Counted from the stretch's first letter, positions 53,694 through 64,000 are shown. The stretch: DNA of 64,000 bases from Escherichia coli (GCF_022846255.1 NZ_AP025682.1); one strand, 5' to 3'. Notes: generated from the letters alone by a model not told the origin. Program-made: numbers and translations.

Positions 53694-55379
53694 ATGTACG
53701 ATTTTAATCTGGTGTTGCTGCTGCTTCAGCAGATGTGCGTTTTTTTAGTCATTGCGTGGTTAATGAGTAAAACGCCATTATTCATACCGTTAATGCAGGT
53801 CACGGTTCGTCTGCCGCATAAATTTCTCTGCTACATCGTCTTTTCCATCTTCTGCATCATGGGCACCTGGTTTGGGTTGCACATTGACGATTCTATTGCC
53901 AATACCCGTGCGATAGGTGCGGTAATGGGCGGCTTACTCGGCGGTCCGGTCGTCGGTGGGCTGGTTGGTCTGACCGGCGGGTTACATCGATATTCGATGG
54001 GGGGCATGACCGCGCTAAGTTGCATGATCTCGACCATCGTTGAAGGATTGCTCGGCGGCCTGGTACACAGCATCCTGATCCGTCGCGGGCGCACTGATAA
54101 AGTCTTTAACCCCATTACCGCCGGTGCCGTCACGTTCGTCGCTGAAATGGTGCAAATGTTGATCATCCTGGCGATCGCCCGACCTTATGAAGATGCGGTG
54201 CGTCTGGTGAGTAATATTGCTGCGCCAATGATGGTCACCAATACCGTCGGCGCGGCACTGTTTATGCGTATATTGCTCGATAAACGCGCGATGTTTGAAA
54301 AATACACTTCGGCTTTTTCTGCCACTGCGCTGAAAGTGGCGGCCTCGACGGAAGGCATTTTGCGCCAGGGGTTTAACGAAGTGAACAGCATGAAAGTGGC
54401 ACAGGTGCTGTATCAGGAGCTGGATATTGGTGCAGTCGCGATTACCGATCGAGAGAAATTGCTGGCCTTTACCGGAATTGGTGACGACCACCATTTACCC
54501 GGCAAACCAATTTCTTCGACTTATACCTTAAAAGCGATTGAAACCGGTGAAGTGGTCTACGCTGATGGCAACGAAGTGCCTTACCGTTGCTCTTTGCATC
54601 CGCAATGCAAACTGGGGTCGACGCTGGTCATTCCGTTGCGTGGTGAAAATCAGCGAGTGATGGGTACCATCAAATTGTATGAAGCCAAAAACCGTTTATT
54701 CAGTTCAATCAACCGCACGCTGGGCGAGGGGATTGCGCAACTGCTTTCGGCGCAGATCCTCGCCGGGCAATATGAGCGGCAAAAAGCGATGCTCACCCAG
54801 TCAGAGATCAAACTGCTTCACGCCCAGGTGAATCCCCATTTTTTGTTTAATGCGCTTAACACCATTAAAGCGGTGATCCGCCGCGACAGCGAACAGGCCA
54901 GCCAGCTGGTGCAGTATCTTTCTACTTTTTTCCGCAAAAACTTAAAGCGGCCTTCGGAGTTTGTTACTCTCGCCGACGAAATTGAACATGTGAACGCTTA
55001 TCTGCAAATTGAAAAGGCGCGCTTCCAGTCGCGGTTGCAGGTCAACATTGCTATTCCGCAAGAATTATCCCAGCAGCAATTGCCCGCGTTTACCCTGCAA
55101 CCGATAGTGGAAAACGCCATTAAACATGGGACATCACAACTGCTGGATACAGGGCGAGTGGCAATCAGCGCCCGACGTGAGGGGCAACATTTGATGCTGG
55201 AGATCGAAGACAATGCCGGTTTGTATCAACCGGTAACCAATGCCAGTGGGCTGGGGATGAATCTGGTGGATAAGCGTTTACGTGAACGGTTTGGCGATGA
55301 CTATGGGATAAGCGTCGCCTGTGAGCCTGATAGTTACACCCGAATAACGTTACGACTACCATGGAGGGACGAGGCATGA
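53694..55379 (+). CDS. btsS: LytS-type sensor histidine kinase (5TM-Lyt, GAF, HisKA_3/HATPase)
   Basis: 561 aa from [13 protein letters not shown]…. Confidence 0.92.
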
Positions 55380-56095
55380 TTAAAGTCTTAATTGTCGATG
55401 ATGAACCGTTAGCACGGGAGAACCTGCGCGTATTTTTGCAGGAGCAGAGCGATATTGAAATCGTTGGAGAGTGTTCAAACGCCGTAGAAGGGATCGGCGC
55501 GGTGCATAAACTGCGCCCGGATGTGCTGTTTCTCGATATCCAGATGCCGCGCATCAGTGGTCTGGAAATGGTGGGGATGCTCGACCCGGAACATCGCCCG
55601 TATATTGTTTTTCTCACCGCGTTTGACGAATACGCCATTAAAGCCTTTGAAGAACATGCCTTTGATTATCTGCTGAAGCCAATTGATGAAGCGCGACTGG
55701 AGAAAACGCTGGCGCGATTGCGTCAGGAGCGCAGCAAGCAGGATGTTTCGCTGTTACCGGAAAATCAACAGGCGCTGAAATTTATCCCTTGTACGGGGCA
55801 TAGTCGGATTTATTTGCTGCAAATGAAAGATGTGGCATTTGTCAGCAGTCGGATGAGCGGTGTCTACGTGACCAGTCACGAAGGGAAAGAGGGCTTTACC
55901 GAACTGACATTACGTACCCTGGAAAGTCGTACACCACTACTGCGCTGCCATCGTCAGTATCTGGTTAACCTCGCGCATTTACAGGAGATCCGTCTGGAAG
56001 ATAACGGCCAGGCCGAGTTGATTTTGCGTAATGGCTTAACCGTGCCGGTCAGCCGCCGTTATCTGAAAAGCTTAAAAGAGGCGATTGGCCTGTAA
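55376..56095 (+). CDS. btsR: LytTR-family response regulator
   Basis: 239 aa, [15 protein letters not shown]…; ATGA overlap with the btsS stop. Confidence 0.92.
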
Positions 56096-56141
56096 AAGAC
56101 TGCTAAAATGGCTTTTTGCCTCATCAACACCTGAAGGCCTC

Positions 56142-56612
56142 ATGCTAAGTAACGATATTCTGCGCAGCGTGCGCTACATTTTGAAAGCCAATAATAATGA
56201 CCTGGTGCGTATTCTGGCGCTGGGTAATGTCGAAGCCACCGCGGAACAGATCGCCGTCTGGCTACGTAAAGAAGACGAAGAGGGTTTTCAGCGTTGTCCG
56301 GACATTGTTTTGTCTTCATTCCTCAATGGCCTGATTTATGAAAAACGCGGCAAGGATGAGTCTGCTCCGGCACTGGAGCCGGAACGTCGCATTAATAACA
56401 ACATCGTGCTGAAAAAATTACGCATCGCGTTTTCGCTTAAAACCGATGACATTCTGGCAATCCTCACCGAACAGCAGTTCCGCGTTTCGATGCCGGAAAT
56501 TACGGCGATGATGCGTGCACCGGATCATAAAAACTTCCGCGAATGCGGCGATCAATTTTTACGGTATTTTCTGCGTGGACTGGCAGCGCGCCAGCATGTG
56601 AAGAAAAGCTAA
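56142..56612 (+). CDS. yehS: DUF1456-family protein
   Basis: 156 aa from MLSNDILRSVRYILK…. Confidence 0.82.
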   Translation: MLSNDILRSVRYILKANNNDLVRILALGNVEATAEQIAVWLRKEDEEGFQRCPDIVLSSFLNGLIYEKRGKDESAPALEPERRINNNIVLKKLRIAFSLKTDDILAILTEQQFRVSMPEITAMMRAPDHKNFRECGDQFLRYFLRGLAARQHVKKS

Positions 56613-56621
56613 GACGGGTAT

Positions 56622-56646
56622 GGCGGCCATGCGAAACATGGCCGCC
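56622..56646. terminator. Bidirectional hairpin terminator between convergent yehS and yehR
   Basis: GGCGGCCATG-cgaaa-CATGGCCGCC (10-bp perfect stem). Confidence 0.7.
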
Positions 56647-56652
56647 GACAGA

Positions 56653-57114
56653 TTATTTCACTTCTTTAAAACCAGCGGCTTTCATCACCAGTTCCATTTG
56701 CGCCATAGTGATACCTTTTTTGGCATCTTCAGCAGAAACGTTGATTCCTGAAATACCCTGCAGGGCTTTAAAATCCACTTTTTCCATATCAATAGTCACG
56801 TTTTCCTGCGCGTAGGTATCGGTATAGGTTAATTTTTCTTCAACACCTGCGATGTTTTTGTATTTGGCGCTTAACGGCTCAAGTGTCCTGGCGGCATCTT
56901 CTTTGGTGGTTGCACCAATGGAGGCAAATTGAATTTTGGTTTCAGAAGATTGCTTAAGCACCTTGTCACCTTTGTAGACATAGGTAATGGCAATTTCAGT
57001 GCCGTTCAGATTGGCGCTGAATTTCTTTGATTCTTCTTTGTCACCGCAGCCAGCAAGAGAGAAAACCAGAACAGATGCAACAACAAGGGAAAACAGCTTA
57101 TTGAAAGCCTTCAT
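56653..57114 (-). CDS. yehR: DUF1307 lipoprotein
   Basis: 153 aa with lipobox (VFSLAGC). Confidence 0.88.
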   Translation of the reverse strand: MKAFNKLFSLVVASVLVFSLAGCGDKEESKKFSANLNGTEIAITYVYKGDKVLKQSSETKIQFASIGATTKEDAARTLEPLSAKYKNIAGVEEKLTYTDTYAQENVTIDMEKVDFKALQGISGINVSAEDAKKGITMAQMELVMKAAGFKEVK

Positions 57115-57238: not shown

Positions 57239-59242
57239 TCATCCTTGTTGCTGAAGCATGGGGAATAATTGTTCGCAAAGCAAAACACCGTTATTCATTG
57301 CTTCTACCCGTGCCTCGCTTTCTGTATTACGAAATTGTCCCAACACATGTGCCAGCCGATAAAAACCCACCGCGGTGAGGTCATTCGCCAGCAACTCTGC
57401 CTGACCAATAGCACTCTGTTCCTGATAGCGCCAGCCGTTATGGAGCAGTTGAATAAGTAACGCCTGGCAGCGCATCAGCAACTGATGAGCGGTAGACGGC
57501 ACAGGCAGAACGCTGGCAGAAGGTAGCGGTGCCACAGGCGCAGTTTCTGCGTCCAGCGCCCAGGCGCGGGTTTTTGTCATCATCACCCGTGGTTCCAGTG
57601 TTAATTGCCCCTCTACAAAACTGACAAAGCCAGAAACCAGGCTCACGGGGTCGTCTGTTTGTTGCAAAAGCGCCGCCATGCGTTCAACGGCAAAAGGAGA
57701 ACAGGCAGATGCCGGAAGGGATAACGTCAGCACATTATCTTCCCCTTCGCCGCTGATTACCTGCGCATCCAGTGTCTGGCGGCTGCTATCCCAACCGAGC
57801 GAAATACACTCCGCTACCGGCAGAATAAATAAGTTATCGACCTGGTTGAGTGGTCGTATGCAGGCGGGGGGACGCTGGCGTAAATATTCCCGCAAAGCCA
57901 CAATGCCCGGCTGGCGCAACGGCGCGCTCAACATTAGCCAGGCGTCTGGCGACAGTGGAACAACGCCACTCAAGCGGTTACGGGTCGCGAACAGCAGCTC
58001 GCAATCGGCACTGCGTTTTGCAGCTTGTGAAACAATTTGCCCACCTGCCAGTGCGCCAGCCTGAAAACTAAACAGCCGACGCGTCGCTGCCGGTGAGTTT
58101 TCCTGTTCGCTTCTCTGCCAACTACGCGAAAGATGCAAAATACTTCCTGTGTCGGGATCGGTAAACCAGATGCGTAAACCATACTGCTCAATATCCTGCC
58201 AGCAACGCATACCTAAAGACACCAGCCGCAGATGATCAAGTTTTGCTTCTCCGGCAATACCAGCGCCAACGACCGTGCGCCACGGCATGGGAGGAACTTC
58301 ACCGATACTGTCGCGTCGCGCCATCTCTTGTACGCAATTTAATCGACTGTTTAATGCCGCAAGCTGACGTAAGCATTCTCCGGCATGGTAGTGGCTGGCA
58401 CGGGCGTGGAAGGCATCAACACTGGCGCGCAATTGCCGTAGCGATTCACTCACCCATCGCCAGTTGCAGCGTTCCGCCGCTTGCTGCGCGCGACTGAAAG
58501 CGGCCTCGTAATGGATTGGCGGTTGACTTATCCCGCCCAGCCATAATGCCTGGCTTAATTGCTGAACATATTGACGACACGTTTTGCCTTCTTCGCTGGC
58601 AAACGGATCATCAGATGATGTGGCGTGTTCACTGCGCATCTGCCAGATTAAATGAGTAAATTCCGCTTGCTGAGTTTTGGCCTCGACGAAGGCCTGCACA
58701 GCCAGTACGACATGTTCGCAAAGTGTGCCTTCAATGCAATCACAGCGTGCGAAGCGAATGCTGCTGCGGGAATAAAAACGCACATCGCTCATCGGTAATC
58801 GGGCAGAGGGAATTTCGCCAGGCGCACAGAACAACTCAATGGTGATGCCTTTAGCGACCAGCGCCTGCGCGCGTTTGCGGGTGGCATCGGGCAAGGTAGC
58901 CAGTTCTTTCAGCCAGATTGCCGGATCCCACTCTTCTTCTTTTTTTTCCGTAGGCTGGGCGGTGGCACAAAGTCGTTGATAACTTAACACCAGCATCACG
59001 CGATGACGGCACATGCCGCTGGCCCCGCAGGTGCACTGAGCCTCTTTCAGTGCCTGACTGTTCGCCAGCTGTGTACGGACACCGTCACTGAAAGTGGCGA
59101 TTAAAGCGCCGTTCTCATGGCTGATCTCCGGGACGTTGCCATTTTCCAGTTCCTTAAGGCTGCGCTTAACAAAACCGGCATTGCTTAACGCCGTCAGTGC
59201 CTGTGGTGTCAGTTCTAATAATTCCGGACGTAGTGAATTCAT
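57239..59242 (-). CDS. yehQ: SWIM zinc-finger-containing protein (last gene of the yehL cassette)
   Basis: Two CxC…CxH SWIM-like motifs (CTCGASGMCRH, CDCIEGTLCEH); chosen ATG overlaps the yehP stop as ATGA; exact start uncertain (track ORF extends to 59266). Confidence 0.8.
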   Translation of the reverse strand: MNSLRPELLELTPQALTALSNAGFVKRSLKELENGNVPEISHENGALIATFSDGVRTQLANSQALKEAQCTCGASGMCRHRVMLVLSYQRLCATAQPTEKKEEEWDPAIWLKELATLPDATRKRAQALVAKGITIELFCAPGEIPSARLPMSDVRFYSRSSIRFARCDCIEGTLCEHVVLAVQAFVEAKTQQAEFTHLIWQMRSEHATSSDDPFASEEGKTCRQYVQQLSQALWLGGISQPPIHYEAAFSRAQQAAERCNWRWVSESLRQLRASVDAFHARASHYHAGECLRQLAALNSRLNCVQEMARRDSIGEVPPMPWRTVVGAGIAGEAKLDHLRLVSLGMRCWQDIEQYGLRIWFTDPDTGSILHLSRSWQRSEQENSPAATRRLFSFQAGALAGGQIVSQAAKRSADCELLFATRNRLSGVVPLSPDAWLMLSAPLRQPGIVALREYLRQRPPACIRPLNQVDNLFILPVAECISLGWDSSRQTLDAQVISGEGEDNVLTLSLPASACSPFAVERMAALLQQTDDPVSLVSGFVSFVEGQLTLEPRVMMTKTRAWALDAETAPVAPLPSASVLPVPSTAHQLLMRCQALLIQLLHNGWRYQEQSAIGQAELLANDLTAVGFYRLAHVLGQFRNTESEARVEAMNNGVLLCEQLFPMLQQQG

Positions 59243-60375
59243 GACTGAAGATTCTCCGCAAGCCATGATGCCAGCTCGCCCGGTGTCATGGCGGCTATTT
59301 GTGCGCCGACATTTACCAGCGCCTGGGCCGTATCGTGGTCATAGCAAGGTGTTGCGCTGCTATCGAGCGCCGCCAGTCCCAGCACTTTGATGCCGCTCTG
59401 GACACACTTTTTCACCTGATGCGTCAGCAATGATGATGACCCACCTTCATAAAAATCGCTCACGAGAATAATGACACTTTTTGCAGGTTGTTCAATAAGT
59501 TGCCGACCATACTCCACGGCACTGGCGATATTGGTCCCGCCGCCCAGTTGTACTTTCATTAATAACTCTACCGGATCGGCAACGTCTGCCGTGAGATCAA
59601 CCACGCTGGTGTCAAAAGCGACCAGATGGGTACGAATGCCGGGTAACTGCCATAAACAGGCCGCCATCACTGCGGAGTGGATCACCGAATCAACCATCGA
59701 TCCGCTTTGATCAACCAGTAGGACCAGTTGCCATTGTTCGCTATGGCGTTTAATGCGGCTGTTAAAGCGGGGGGATTCGATATACAACTTGCCGTGTTGC
59801 GGGTGCCAGTGTTGCAGGTTGGCGCGCAGAGTACTTTTGAAATCAAAGTTTCGCGCCAGTGAAATAAATGAGCGGCGACGGCGATCGCGTACTCCAGAAA
59901 AAGCCTGACGAACTTCCTTTGCCAGTCGCGCCATAATCTCTTCAACAACCTGGTGCACTATCCGGCGGGCGGCAGCCAGTACTTCGGGATTCATCAGATG
60001 TTTGGCGTGCAAAACGGCGCGTAGCAGGCTTTCAGAAGGCTGCATACGTTCCAGCACGTCGAGATTCGTCACCACATCTTCAATGCCGTAGCGCAGCACG
60101 GCATCGCTTTCCAGCCGCTCGATCACCCGTTGCGGAAACAGCGTGTGAATGCTGTTGATCCACTCAGGGGTGGTGAGATTTGAACGACCTAATCCACCGT
60201 AACGTTCACCACGCTGGAGCCGTTCAGGATCGCGCCCATACAGCCACTCCAGCGCGTGGTCTATCTGCCGGGCGTTGTCATCCAGCCCACAAAGCGTCGT
60301 TTCTGCCGCTTCGCCAAGAATTAATCGCCAGCGTTGTAGCTCACGGGTGGTCAGAAGATCGTTCAGTTCAGACAT
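59239..60375 (-). CDS. yehP: von Willebrand factor A (VWA) domain protein
   Basis: 378 aa from MSELNDLLTTREL…; MIDAS motif DQSGSM; start overlaps the yehM stop by 8 nt. Confidence 0.88.
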   Translation of the reverse strand: MSELNDLLTTRELQRWRLILGEAAETTLCGLDDNARQIDHALEWLYGRDPERLQRGERYGGLGRSNLTTPEWINSIHTLFPQRVIERLESDAVLRYGIEDVVTNLDVLERMQPSESLLRAVLHAKHLMNPEVLAAARRIVHQVVEEIMARLAKEVRQAFSGVRDRRRRSFISLARNFDFKSTLRANLQHWHPQHGKLYIESPRFNSRIKRHSEQWQLVLLVDQSGSMVDSVIHSAVMAACLWQLPGIRTHLVAFDTSVVDLTADVADPVELLMKVQLGGGTNIASAVEYGRQLIEQPAKSVIILVSDFYEGGSSSLLTHQVKKCVQSGIKVLGLAALDSSATPCYDHDTAQALVNVGAQIAAMTPGELASWLAENLQS

Positions 60376-62646
60376 GGAAAACTCCCCAGTGTTGCAGCGA
60401 TGCCAGTGCCTGCTGTTCGAGTTGTTGATGATGTGCAATGTCTTGTGGTGGACAATGCAACGGCATTTGCAGTGCCGAAACGGGAAGTTGCACCAGTTGA
60501 TAATGCTCAAGCACCTGATGTGCCAGCGTCCCGCGTTCTCGTGGTGGTAGCCAGGCCATCGCCGCGCGTAAATCGGGCAGGGCATTGATAAAATCGGCAT
60601 CACTCAGTTGATTTAAATGACTGCTGAAACCGGCGATAAATACCGGCTGACAGGCCAGTTGATGACGGGCTAATGCCAGCAAACCGTGCAGCGCCTCGCC
60701 GGATTGTGCCGGGGATAACTGCGCCAGCATCGTCAGCGCCGTTTCGGCACTGGCGTTGGGATGTTCCAGACGCATCAGTGCGCCAAGAGTCGCGCCGCGA
60801 TCCAGCGCCGGGGCATGAATCGCCTGACTGCGGCGCTCCAGTAAGGCTACTGCCGCAGAAAGCGAAACGCCGGGTAAATTAACGCCGCTATGTAGATCGC
60901 GCAGGATATGGCAAAGCGCCTGCCAGCTATGCAGGTGAGTGTGAAACTCCTTTTCATCCGGTCTGCCGTTGGATTCACATAGCCAGAGTGTGCGATCGAT
61001 AGCCGCGCATAACGTCGTCTGTAATATCTGCGCGCCTTGCATACCGCTAATTTCATCCAGCCGCCATAAGGCATATAGCACTTCCAGCGCCTGGCCCATT
61101 TCGGCGAATTGATTTTCCTGGGCGATTAATAATGTGAGTTGCTCCAGTAATTGTTGACTGAAGGACGCCAGACCCGCTAACGCCGCCTGGCTAAGACATG
61201 TGGTGATACTGCCGATTCCACCCGCGTCCAGCATATCGGCTTCTAATTTATTGCGTGCGGCTTCCTGGAGTGTGGCACCAAAGCAGGCGGCCTCAATTAA
61301 TGCCGCATGTTGCTAAGCGGGCGGGTTAATTTCCAGCGTTCTTCACCGTTGCCTGCAAGTGTCAGTGTGCTTCCCTGCTGGCGTACAATCCCTGGGATCT
61401 CCAGTATTGCCAGCCGATGTAACACCTGACTTTGCGCTAGTCCATTGGGGGTAAAGCGATTTAAGGTAAGCTCCGCCGGAAGAGAGATTGCGGTACGTTC
61501 CAGTTCGCAGGTGACATCTTTTGGCAGAGGCGGTTGTGGCGTAGAAGGGGCAAGTTTACCGAATCCGTCACCCGCTAATGTGTCTATCAACGTTAGCAGA
61601 ATCGGATCGGTATCGGGATGAATAACGCCGCGATAGCTCCACGGCAACGGCGCATTCAGGGCTTCTTTAATCAGCGATCCTGCTATGGCATCCAGCCAGT
61701 CAGTGCGTAACGGTAGTGTATGACCGCGCAACTGTGCCAGTGCCATCGCATGCAGATGAGCGGCAGCCATATCCGCGGTCGAAGCAGGCAACTTGTGCTG
61801 GCGCAAACGGGTGAGAACCGTTTTTAGCAATTGTTCTCCCGTCTGCTGTAAGCCCCACTGCCAGCACCAGTTTTGCCAGACCGGGGCAGGCATTCCTGAA
61901 AGGTATCCTGCCAGCACATCAAGGCGCTTTTCACTGTAGGGGGTGAGATAACAACCTGTAACGGCATCTGCCAGCGACGGCAATTCTGGCGTGTTAATTA
62001 CCTGCGGACATTCGCGCCACATTTTTGCCAGTGCCGGAGCGTGCCAGCCACCGCAGACAACTAACACGTCGCCATTATTTTGCTGCATCGCCCATGTAAT
62101 CCAGCGGGCCATAAAGGCTTCGCGCTGACGATTGAGAGCATCTCCGGGGGAGTCGCCCCGCAGTTGGGCAAAATAGTGCGCCAGTGCAGAGGGTAATGCA
62201 GTTTGCTGGCTTTCATCTTCGAACAAGTGATCCCACAGGGTGTCGCTGTTATCCATGCGGGTGGCACGCAGCAGCAAGGTCTGGCTTTCCTCTTGCGTAT
62301 CAGGCGAATCGTCCTCTTCTTCACTCTGCGCCCAGCAAGGCAAATCGATGAAGTAAGTTTGTGCCTGAATACGACGAGCGGCTTGTAGCGCCTGCCACTC
62401 CGGCGAAAATTCAGCATATGGCGTCCAGGCACCACGCCCGGGGGCTGCACCGTCCTGATACTGGCAATAACTGTAAATAGCTACCGGAAGCTGGTGGGCT
62501 AAAAACAGTTCGTCTACCCGGTCATTAAAATCAGCCGGGCCTTCAATCAACACGTATCGTGGCCGCTGGCTTTCGATTAACGATTTCACCAGCCGGGCGC
62601 AGGCCGGACTATGATGCCGGATGCCGACAATTAACGGCTCGCTCAT
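60368..62646 (-). pseudogene. yehM: Large uncharacterized protein of the yehL cassette, interrupted by a frameshift in this sequence
   Basis: Two abutting minus-strand ORFs in different frames (61297..62814 and 60368..61234); the upstream frame stops at 61297-61299, the downstream frame is open only below 61313. Confidence 0.6.
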
Positions 62647-62656
62647 GCATCTTTCC

Positions 62657-63745
62657 TCACGGCAGGCGGTGGCGGGCTTGATAATAAGCCTGCCAGTGAG
62701 CTTCTTTATGTGTGGCGACTCGCTGTTCGAAGTAACGGCGCAGACGAGCGCGATCTTCTTCGTTATCTTTGACGATGGTTCCGGCAATACAGTCCACCAG
62801 ATCGGCTGGCTCACCTGCGCGATTCGCTAAAAACCAGGCGCGGACGCCCACTGCGTGGGCCACGTTCACGGCTTCAGCGGTGGACATAATTGCCGTCAGG
62901 GTATCCATTGACGTTTTCTTTTCGCCGTTGGCACGCAGATCGCGGAAGGTGCGGACCAGTAACTCCAGTACCGCGTCAGGCACTTTATGCGGAATACCGC
63001 TATGGGCCAGCAAACGCGCCGAAGCACTGGCGACCAGTTCCAGCTCCTGGGCGAAATCCATAATCGGAAAGACGGTTTCAAAATCGAAGCGACGCTTTAG
63101 CGCGGCACTCATCTCATTGACGCCGCGATCGCGTGTATTGGCAGTGGCAATAATATTAAAGCCTTCCCGCGCATAGAGCTGACTGGCTTCACCGGTGAGT
63201 TCCGGCACCGTCATCACCCTGTCAGAAAGCATACCTAACAGACAGTCTTGTACTTCCAGCGGTGTACGCGTTATCTCTTCAAAACGGACGATTTTGCCGT
63301 CGCGCATTCCCTGGTAAAGCGGGGCAGGGACCAGTGCTTCCGTTGACGGACCATGGTTGATAAGCAGGGCGTAGTTCCAGCCGTACTTGATTTGATCTTC
63401 GGTGGTAGATGCGCCGCCCTGGATGGTTAACCCGGCATCGCCGCTAATAGCGGTTGCCAGTAATTCAGACAGGAGAGATTTTGCGGTGCCAGGTTCCCCC
63501 ACCAACATCAAACCGCGCCCGGTGGCAAGAGTGACTAACATACGTTCGACAGCGGAGGGACTAATCACCACTTTACGGCTAATATTTTGCGCGCTATCGC
63601 CAAGGATAAAAGCACGGGCCGCAGGCAAACTTAACTGCCAACCGGGCGGGCAAGGTGCGTGATCATTTTGTTTTAATTTTGCCAGTTCATCGGCGTATAA
63701 CACAGCGGCAGGCGGACGCTGCAGATGATTATTCTGCGGTGACAT
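62657..63745 (-). CDS. yehL: MoxR-family AAA+ ATPase
   Basis: 362 aa from MSPQNNHLQRPP…; Walker A LVGEPGTAKS, Walker B and sensor regions. Confidence 0.9.
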   Translation of the reverse strand: MSPQNNHLQRPPAAVLYADELAKLKQNDHAPCPPGWQLSLPAARAFILGDSAQNISRKVVISPSAVERMLVTLATGRGLMLVGEPGTAKSLLSELLATAISGDAGLTIQGGASTTEDQIKYGWNYALLINHGPSTEALVPAPLYQGMRDGKIVRFEEITRTPLEVQDCLLGMLSDRVMTVPELTGEASQLYAREGFNIIATANTRDRGVNEMSAALKRRFDFETVFPIMDFAQELELVASASARLLAHSGIPHKVPDAVLELLVRTFRDLRANGEKKTSMDTLTAIMSTAEAVNVAHAVGVRAWFLANRAGEPADLVDCIAGTIVKDNEEDRARLRRYFEQRVATHKEAHWQAYYQARHRLP

Positions 63746-63861
63746 ATATTCATCCCTGAAATGTATTAATGAAATAAACGATATTTTACGCGCAATAAAT
63801 GTTTGCCGCATTAGTTGTTTGAGCGAAAAATATCTGGAAAGCAGATCACAGTAAATAAAAA

Positions 63862-63892
63862 AACCTGCTGGTGAGGCAGGTTCTTTTATTTA
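63862..63892. terminator. Bidirectional rho-independent terminator upstream of yehL
   Basis: AACCTGC-tggtgag-GCAGGTT flanked by an A-run (5') and CTTTTATTT (3'). Confidence 0.7.
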
Positions 63893-64000
63893 CTATTTTC
63901 AGGCCTAACACCACAGCCTGTGCAACATCGTGTTCCAACGAACGAATTATAACCACGGCTGGACCCCGTTGCAATTAAGATAATGAGATTTATAATCCAG

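Follow-up and report, generated by a model that had tools for sequence, protein, structure and literature searches.

The yehLMPQ genes of Escherichia coli: part of a conserved five-protein MoxR-VWA system, carried by one genome as a damaged copy

What do the genes yehL, yehM, yehP and yehQ of Escherichia coli encode together, and do they form a working unit? The four genes have long been annotated in this species and lie one after the other on the minus strand of a 64,000-nucleotide stretch of E. coli DNA (GCF_022846255.1, NZ_AP025682.1), hereafter the window, to whose first base all coordinates refer unless a locus is named. A preliminary description of the window had presented them as a translationally coupled cassette around a MoxR ATPase and a VWA protein. 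Comparison with K-12, with strain N47, which is the closest complete genome, and with related loci in other bacteria leads to a different composition: yehLMPQ make up four-fifths of a conserved, cytoplasmic, ATP-driven machine of five proteins, whose fifth member, a WGR-DUF4132 protein (MolR/YehI), is encoded beyond the window, and the window holds a damaged copy of it.

Conservation of the five families

A YehM alignment was scanned against one genome per species in about 100,000 species, and YehM relatives were found to be encoded in at least 566 of them. The locus counts given here refer to the best 80 of these (at least) 566, from Gamma- and Betaproteobacteria, Myxococcota/Deltaproteobacteria and Actinobacteria, whose open reading frames (ORFs) were searched with the E. 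coli proteins. All five families, i.e. the WGR-DUF4132 protein, YehL, YehM, YehP and YehQ, are present together in 70 of the 80 loci, nearly always on one strand and usually in the order one to three DUF4132 genes, yehL, yehM, yehP, yehQ; in Burkholderia the DUF4132 gene follows yehQ (L-M-P-Q-I), and the incomplete loci are mostly found at contig ends. The DUF4132 protein begins with a WGR domain in 64 of the 80 loci. The ATPase gene remains linked to the gene of its VWA partner, since YehP is encoded adjacently in at least 74 loci and two genes downstream of yehL in the window. The gene neighbourhood, which the preliminary description had named as a check, is therefore co-conserved, and its view of a single unit around the MoxR-VWA pair stands as far as common inheritance across phyla is concerned; the unit, however, comprises five families, with WGR-DUF4132 as the fifth. 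All-against-all clustering of the ORFs in the 80 loci and their 10-kb flanks, polluted by spurious overlapping high-GC ORFs, gave no sixth family that is widely shared.

The junctions between the genes are also informative. In the window the limits of the four genes are exactly those first proposed; read directly from the sequence, 10 nucleotides separate the TGA of yehL from the ATG of yehM, yehM and yehP overlap by the 8 nucleotides ATGTCTGA, and yehP and yehQ share ATGA (4 nucleotides), again as previously described. A Shine-Dalgarno-like purine run precedes each of the four starts. In the other loci stop and start codons overlap by 4 nucleotides in 59 of 74 yehP/yehQ junctions, 35 of 77 yehM/yehP junctions and 27 of 79 yehL/yehM junctions. 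The recurrence of these overlaps indicates that translational coupling is a property of the system, although it is broken in the window nonetheless.

A distant branch is very common among Lachnospiraceae, where DUF5682 proteins at E <= 1e-10 number more than 4,000. Here the order is different: a SWIM protein, a helical protein of about 640 residues, the MoxR ATPase, the DUF5682 protein and the VWA_CoxE protein. The SWIM motif CSCPSRQFPCKH is located at residue 71, which corresponds to its position in YehQ, and the helical protein has a faint match to the MolR/YehI profile. This set of five proteins is kept in bacteria ranging from gut Clostridia to relatives of Streptomyces. In E. coli, yehLMPQ together with molR/yehI are among the largest blocks of the core genome with unknown function, about 14 kb with all paralogues.

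Some loci show deviations or insertions. Four of them (L049, L056, L065 and L071) depart from the five-gene pattern; two betaproteobacterial isolates encode YehL, a 289-residue ORF and YehM, with YehP, YehQ and the DUF4132 protein not detected, and two metagenome-assembled genomes of Myxococcota have only YehL, YehM and YehP nearby. In one Lachnospiraceae locus (L092) a protein of 758 residues is inserted between the MoxR and DUF5682 genes (L092 6694-8970), and an 80-residue gene with a PIN-domain gene, a toxin-antitoxin-like pair, lies between the DUF5682 and VWA genes (L092 11274-11913); genes for ClpS, ClpA and Leu/Phe-tRNA-protein transferase follow directly downstream.

Subunits and proposed mode of action

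From their sequences, YehL can be placed securely among the MoxR AAA+ ATPases and YehP among the CoxE-type VWA proteins. The motifs already noticed in the preliminary description, GEPGTAKS in YehL, the DQSGS MIDAS in YehP and two CxCx5CxH fingers in YehQ, were all found again; an NCBIfam scan returned only weak similarities to GvpN, MadB and cobaltochelatase. YehL is the member that gives its name to the YehL subfamily of MoxR ATPases (PMC3893208); its Walker A GEPGTAKS, VRFEE, ATANTRD (sensor 1) and AALKRRF (arginine finger) are kept in 80 orthologues, the Walker B being of the type E-E instead of D-E. A C-terminal ARHRLP tail is conserved as well. Among proteins of solved structure, the AAA_5 modules of midasin come closest to YehL in sequence (3e-10); a weak Pfam match to bpMoxR (E = 0.002) is also present. 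YehP consists, according to Pfam, only of an N-terminal helical region and a VWA domain, with no fused effector or VMAP domain, and the complete MIDAS set of D222, S224, S226, T281 and D307 is conserved in 78 orthologues.

YehM had been described as a protein without any recognisable motif; its fold can nevertheless be assigned, and is that of the TIKI/TraB/ChaN group. Residues 1-240 adopt an alpha/beta fold whose parallel beta-sheet core is common to ChaN, PMT, HopBA1, Ere-like proteins and RRSP, with ChaN as the top structural match, and a region of about 500 residues follows past residue 240, formed by a middle part and helical repeats. His11, Glu35 and His202 are invariant in 52 sequences and are also kept in Lachnospiraceae; the N-terminal domain is a probable, still putative, His-Glu-His hydrolase. 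Likeness to the TIKI superfamily was not detectable at the sequence level, where Pfam gives DUF5682 only and the PDB profile search was empty; indeed, PDB sequence and profile searches found no relatives for YehM, YehQ or YehP. Differently from the TIKI, TraB, PrgY, EreA and ChaN members, YehM is fused to the region of about 500 residues, is cytoplasmic and is coupled to an AAA+/VWA pair, its activity being putative.

The remaining two subunits contain modules of nucleic-acid type. In YehQ the residues C70, C72, C78 and H80 of the first SWIM finger are invariant in 50 sequences, the second finger is kept only in the majority, and two OB-like beta-barrels and helical bundles are also assigned. 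The WGR domain of MolR is of the PARP type: Pfam WGR matches YehF, the 5' fragment of molR in K-12, with 1.9e-16, and the WGR-DUF4132 (MolR/YehI) profile matches the WGR domain of PARP3 with 2.3e-4. In YehI, a protein of 1210 residues, DUF4132 covers residues 954-1138.

A connection with DNA damage is suggested by regulation. The molR gene is listed among the LexA-regulated E. coli genes with a known SOS box (PMC6590174), and the LexA-box-like sequence CTGGATAAAATTACAG, found 10 nucleotides upstream of the molR/yehF start in both K-12 and Nissle 1917 (L002 1450-1465; L093 142-157), is consistent with this listing. Moreover, in D. radiodurans a WGR protein and a DUF4132 protein or operon belong to the DdrO radiation/desiccation regulon. 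Co-inheritance, intact catalytic motifs, folds and purifying selection are shown by the data. On this basis, and on that of the domain make-up of the extra subunits, of the SOS listing and box of molR, of the DdrO regulon and of the chromosomal position among housekeeping genes, we propose that the system is a nucleic-acid-linked, five-subunit MoxR-VWA complex for remodelling or processing; we give this reading a probability of about 0.4, and grade the function as unproven.

As for the client, the order of events and the enzymatic activity, a possible scheme is the following. The WGR, SWIM and OB subunits would bring the complex to a nucleic-acid structure, or to a protein attached to one, and the MIDAS site of YehP may grip the client at an acidic residue, as happens in midasin and in other MoxR-VWA pairs. 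ATP-driven pulling or remodelling would come from the YehL ring, and the hydrolase domain of YehM would then process the client or, alternatively, might itself be switched on by the MoxR-VWA pair. As a whole, this would be a cellular maintenance system, conditionally useful and tied to DNA damage, and not a mobile defence system.

Several observations weigh against such an assignment. The searched literature assigns no function to yehL, yehM, yehP or yehQ and holds no experimental one for any subunit, so the words 'no assigned function' of the preliminary description hold there. Upstream of the system, a LexA-type box was found in none of 45 loci that belong to Betaproteobacteria, to Escherichia species apart from E. 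coli and to further Enterobacterales. This weakens the link with DNA damage: SOS control is not conserved, and its conservation was dropped as an argument. In K-12, yehL and yehM are repressed by H-NS (PMC3686432). WGR, SWIM and OB domains can bind proteins as well, and ChaN, the top structural match of YehM, binds haem and is not an enzyme; the first Glu of the 2His/2Glu motif of RRSP has no obvious counterpart in YehM. Finally, the locus has decayed repeatedly in E. coli and Shigella, which is in keeping with a system that is dispensable or accessory.

A more specific form of the nucleic-acid-linked complex can be imagined as a bacterial 'split midasin', in which WGR, SWIM and OB modules would recognise a DNA or RNA structure or a trapped protein, the MoxR/MIDAS pair would extract it and a TIKI-type domain would cleave it, in an SOS-linked clearance of DNA-protein adducts or stalled complexes. 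We regard this picture as speculative and improbable in its details; if true, it would amount to a previously unrecognised pathway common to Proteobacteria, Actinobacteria, Myxococcota and gut Clostridia.

Known systems and rival explanations

The core of the system, a MoxR ATPase with a CoxE-type VWA protein, is of a known kind, and what is undescribed in the literature found is the partner set, i.e. the TIKI-fold DUF5682 protein, the SWIM-OB protein and the WGR-DUF4132 protein. Literature searches with DUF5682, with DUF4132 and SWIM, and with combinations of WGR, SWIM, MoxR and vWA did not return a description of the system, and many of the hits for 'yehL' were due to the author name Yehl. 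In E. coli K-12 there is just one further MoxR system, RavA-ViaA (PMC3893208), which likewise combines in one operon a MoxR ATPase and a VWA/MIDAS cofactor; however, it belongs to the RavA subfamily, has two components and acts on respiratory complexes, whereas the yeh system has an ATPase of the YehL subfamily, the CoxE-type YehP and three more obligatory partners (DUF5682, SWIM and WGR-DUF4132). Midasin/Rea1, which acts in eukaryotic ribosome assembly, resembles it in having an AAA_5 ring and a MIDAS domain gripping the client; in midasin, however, these are parts of a single polypeptide of 4,700-4,900 residues with six fused AAA modules, whereas in the yeh system ATPase and MIDAS are found on separate small proteins.

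The first rival to be considered is an anti-phage or conflict system, where the MoxR-VWA pair would act as a threshold switch, SWIM and WGR-DUF4132 proteins would sense the invader and YehM would be a toxic effector released on infection. A precedent exists in the MoxR-vWA ternary conflict systems (Kaur et al. 2020, PMC7159879), which are said to derive from pairs of the CoxD-CoxE type, which have a MoxR-vWA core with additional components like the yeh system, and for some of whose vWA proteins a CoxE-type N-terminal helical domain has been described (PMC7159879); several TIKI-fold relatives, namely RRSP, PMT and HopBA1, are toxins. The yeh system is nevertheless not one of these ternary systems, because its vWA protein is not fused to an effector and a VMAP or iSTAND partner is lacking; a beta-propeller partner is also missing, it is near-universal in E. 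coli, and SWIM, WGR, TraB and YehL are not mentioned in the paper on the conflict systems (PMC7159879). The simple architecture of YehP argues in the same direction.

Its evolution can be read in both ways. The 'sensor-like' subunits change far more rapidly than the ATPase, as expected by the conflict hypothesis: when E. coli is compared with Actinobacteria, median identity reaches 65% for YehL, 58% for YehP, 38% for YehM, 33% for YehI and 29% for YehQ. The same hypothesis is favoured by the one to three tandem paralogues of the DUF4132 gene, by the silencing of the locus by H-NS, by the recurrent gene lesions and by a patchy phyletic spread that suggests horizontal transfer, with for instance a Propionibacteriaceae copy near proteobacterial ones. 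In addition, synonymous divergence between E. coli strains is 2- to 4-fold higher in the yeh genes than in btsSR and yehR (between the window and K-12, 0.12-0.26 for yehL/M/P/Q and 0.05-0.07 for the adjacent btsS, btsR and yehR, 53694-57114), a difference suggestive of recombination, or of divergent alleles having entered the locus. On the other hand, the ratios of nonsynonymous to synonymous substitution rates (dN/dS) within Escherichia, 0.03-0.05 for yehL, 0.04-0.09 for yehP, 0.09-0.14 for yehM and 0.07-0.10 for yehQ (0.21 for yehQ in one very close pair), point to ordinary purifying selection, with no diversifying selection at the whole-gene level.

Genomic context and distribution also argue against the conflict hypothesis, and the mention of defence among the possible roles in the preliminary description, together with its check for defence islands, received no support from PADLOC, genomic context or population frequency. 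PADLOC-DB v2 gave no match at E <= 0.01 for YehL, YehM, YehP, YehQ, YehI, MolR, YehF or YehK. The 10-kb flanks in five genera, inspected by eye, contain housekeeping genes, namely metG, topA, cytochrome bc1, recJ, urea carboxylase and RND efflux genes; they differ in every genus, and no defence or mobile-element genes were seen in them. Of the 5,426 complete E. coli genomes, 5,202 (96%) carry the cassette at one fixed chromosomal locus, a distribution unlike that of typical accessory defence systems. Among 72,556 plasmid records only 38 have a YehM relative, and most of these are megaplasmids or mislabelled chromosomes; of 50,697 phage records a single, doubtful one has it. On balance a conflict system appears rather unlikely.

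The single phage record (L090; MT835988.1, 'Bacteriophage sp.', 14.2 kb, an unverified gut contig) carries a trio of MoxR, DUF5682 and VWA_CoxE genes, which adjoins genes for a polysaccharide deacetylase and a RarA-like ATPase, with no recognisable phage genes; it resembles Lachnospiraceae chromosomal DNA and is probably not a phage.

According to a second rival, the complex would be a chaperone for metal or cofactor insertion of the CoxD-CoxE, NorQ-NorD or BchI-BchD type, with YehM holding metal or haem and the other proteins serving as adaptors for an unlinked target. As in CoxD-CoxE, a VWA protein of Pfam VWA_CoxE, here YehP with an intact MIDAS, is paired with a MoxR-type ATPase, and the characterised MoxR-VWA pairs mostly mature metalloenzymes (PMC3893208; PMC7159879). 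The match of YehM to the haem-binding ChaN, the metal dependence of TIKI enzymes, the housekeeping flanks with strong purifying selection and the historical name of MolR, 'molybdate metabolism regulator', are also in agreement with this explanation. However, the yeh system differs from CoxD-CoxE in that no CO dehydrogenase, CoxF or other target is linked to it and in that it has extra subunits of nucleic-acid type; because no target enzyme is linked, it cannot be classified with CoxD-CoxE. Indeed, no target enzyme or gene for cofactor biosynthesis is conserved alongside, the 80 loci have only the five families in common, known maturation systems do not contain WGR, SWIM or OB-like modules, and five dedicated proteins, one to three of which have 1,200-1,400 residues, far exceed the known insertases. 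A maturation chaperone is improbable.

The null hypothesis of the preliminary description, i.e. an ordinary MoxR-VWA pair beside unrelated genes, could appeal to the by far best conservation of the MoxR and VWA genes and to the few loci mentioned above that lack YehQ and/or the DUF4132 gene, but it is refuted by the co-conservation data and hardly conceivable, since 70 of the 80 loci, in four phyla, keep the five families adjacent and co-oriented while their surroundings change, the 4-nucleotide overlaps are conserved and the Lachnospiraceae version keeps the five roles in another order.

The recognition of a five-family unit, of a probable hydrolase domain in YehM and of nucleic-acid-type modules in YehQ and MolR turns a vaguely defined chaperone into testable hypotheses.

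The copy in the window and the state of the locus in E. coli

In the window, yehM is interrupted by a single-nucleotide deletion (Table 1), revealed by alignment with K-12 and N47, so that the YehM of about 760 residues given in the preliminary description is absent and two ORFs of 449 and 288 residues take its place. The deletion is real, because a Logan assembly made independently from run DRR322657 shows no difference from the window in 12,762 nucleotides, the deletion included, and gives the same two gene calls; a sequencing or assembly error was thus considered and rejected. The allele is private to this lineage: it was found in none of the 5,426 complete E. coli genomes, and its best matches, e.g. 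Nissle 1917, differ by the gap alone. The nearest yehM alleles, such as that of Nissle 1917, are of the phylogroup-B2 type. Programmed frameshifting was also considered as an explanation; no evidence for it was obtained, the allele being private and every orthologue a single ORF.

The consequences concern both the protein and its neighbours. Ribosomes stop about 930 nucleotides upstream of the yehP start, and therefore co-translation of the whole unit, as first proposed, is in agreement with the overlaps widely kept in other loci and fails in this genome, where yehM is frameshifted. Since the frameshift parts the catalytic half of YehM from its scaffold half and uncouples the translation of yehP and yehQ, the window's copy of the machine is very probably inactive.

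Table 1. Position of the yeh genes, their motifs and domains, and adjacent features in the window
Feature	Position	Strand	Size	Remarks
yehL	62657-63745	minus	362 residues	MoxR-type AAA+ ATPase; Pfam AAA_5 2.6e-34
YehL Walker A	63476-63499	minus		motif GEPGTAKS
YehL Walker-B-like	63275-63292	minus		motif IVRFEE
yehM, whole span	60368-62646	minus	2279 nucleotides, indivisible by three	Pfam DUF5682 8.5e-97
yehM deletion	61311/61312	minus	1 nucleotide	codon 446; AGCCAG in K-12 and N47, AG-CAA in the window (alignment)
yehM 5' part	61297-62646	minus	449 codons and premature stop	TIKI/TraB/ChaN-fold domain and middle domain
yehM 3' remnant	60368-61234	minus	288-residue ORF	original frame; C-terminal alpha-helical repeats; ends in the 8-nucleotide yehP overlap
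YehM TIKI/TraB/ChaN/EreA-fold domain	61927-62646	minus	residues 1-240	structural assignment
YehM GIRHHSP	62605-62625	minus		motif in TIKI-fold domain
YehM LIEGP	62536-62550	minus		motif in TIKI-fold domain
YehM CGGWHAP	62035-62055	minus		motif in TIKI-fold domain
yehP	59239-60375	minus	378 residues	CoxE-type VWA protein; Pfam VWA_CoxE 2.6e-71
YehP MIDAS	59698-59712	minus		D222-x-S-x-S, with T281 and D307
+1 frameshift-prone cassette in yehP	59502-59517	minus	16 nucleotides	GTGGAGTATGGTCGGC, exact
yehQ	57239-59242	minus	667 residues	SWIM protein; Pfam SWIM weak, 1.4e-3 and 0.21
YehQ SWIM finger 1	59003-59035	minus		CTCGASGMCRH
YehQ SWIM finger 2	58712-58744	minus		CDCIEGTLCEH
YehQ OB-like beta-barrels (two)	57953-58249, 57557-57832	minus		fold assignment; helical bundles also assigned
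orzO-like antitoxin small RNA (OrzO-P)	63857-63932	minus		Rfam RF02083, 99.9 bits (gathering score 60)

Damage to the locus is not limited to this genome. In K-12, molR is a pseudogene, of which YehF is the 5' fragment, and YehQ is without its last 53 residues, which makes this strain a poor model; the lineage of the window is a poor model as well, because its yehM is frameshifted, and the use of such strains may be a reason for the lack of phenotypes. Nissle 1917 has an intact gene set, and the locus of Klebsiella grimontii is intact too. Truncated YehM makes up several large database clusters, yehM, yehL and zorO are deleted in lineages 2 and 3 of S. sonnei (PMC12795559), and in sublineage L1a of ST131 a resistance transposon is found in the DUF4132 region (PMC9334617). 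A helical segment of YehQ (58250-58480, residues ~255-330) shows an in-frame length polymorphism among E. coli and Shigella: S. sonnei and other strains have an in-frame deletion of 43 residues between short AGE repeats, other strains duplicate the same segment, and a duplication of 23 residues is also present in some strains.

A different feature concerns yehP, which contains the exact 16-nucleotide cassette GTGGAGTATGGTCGGC, experimentally reported to promote +1 ribosomal frameshifting in this gene (PMC2790909); frameshifting at this cassette would yield a YehP product of 303 residues. The cassette is present only in E. coli-like loci (L001, L002, L005 and L083), and not in other Escherichia species or genera; as it reaches no further than E. 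coli and the strains closest to it, it does not characterise the system as such.

At the upstream side, the preliminary description had placed the border of the cassette at a strong bidirectional terminator. The stem concerned (63862-63882) corresponds instead to the 3' end of a gene for an OrzO-P antitoxin small RNA, and it does not delimit the gene set, since related genomes have yehK, yehI and molR further upstream, past base 64000. The OrzO-P gene lies 112 nucleotides upstream of yehL, outside the cassette, and belongs to a type I ZorO/OrzO toxin-antitoxin locus, an insertion that is not present in K-12; it is flanked by divergent promoter-like sites of the sigma-70 type (63946-63996). In strain N47 the same OrzO small RNA is followed by an ORF for a ZorO-like toxin of 29 residues (L001 13080-13169), and in the window the toxin ORF lies beyond the end of the stretch.

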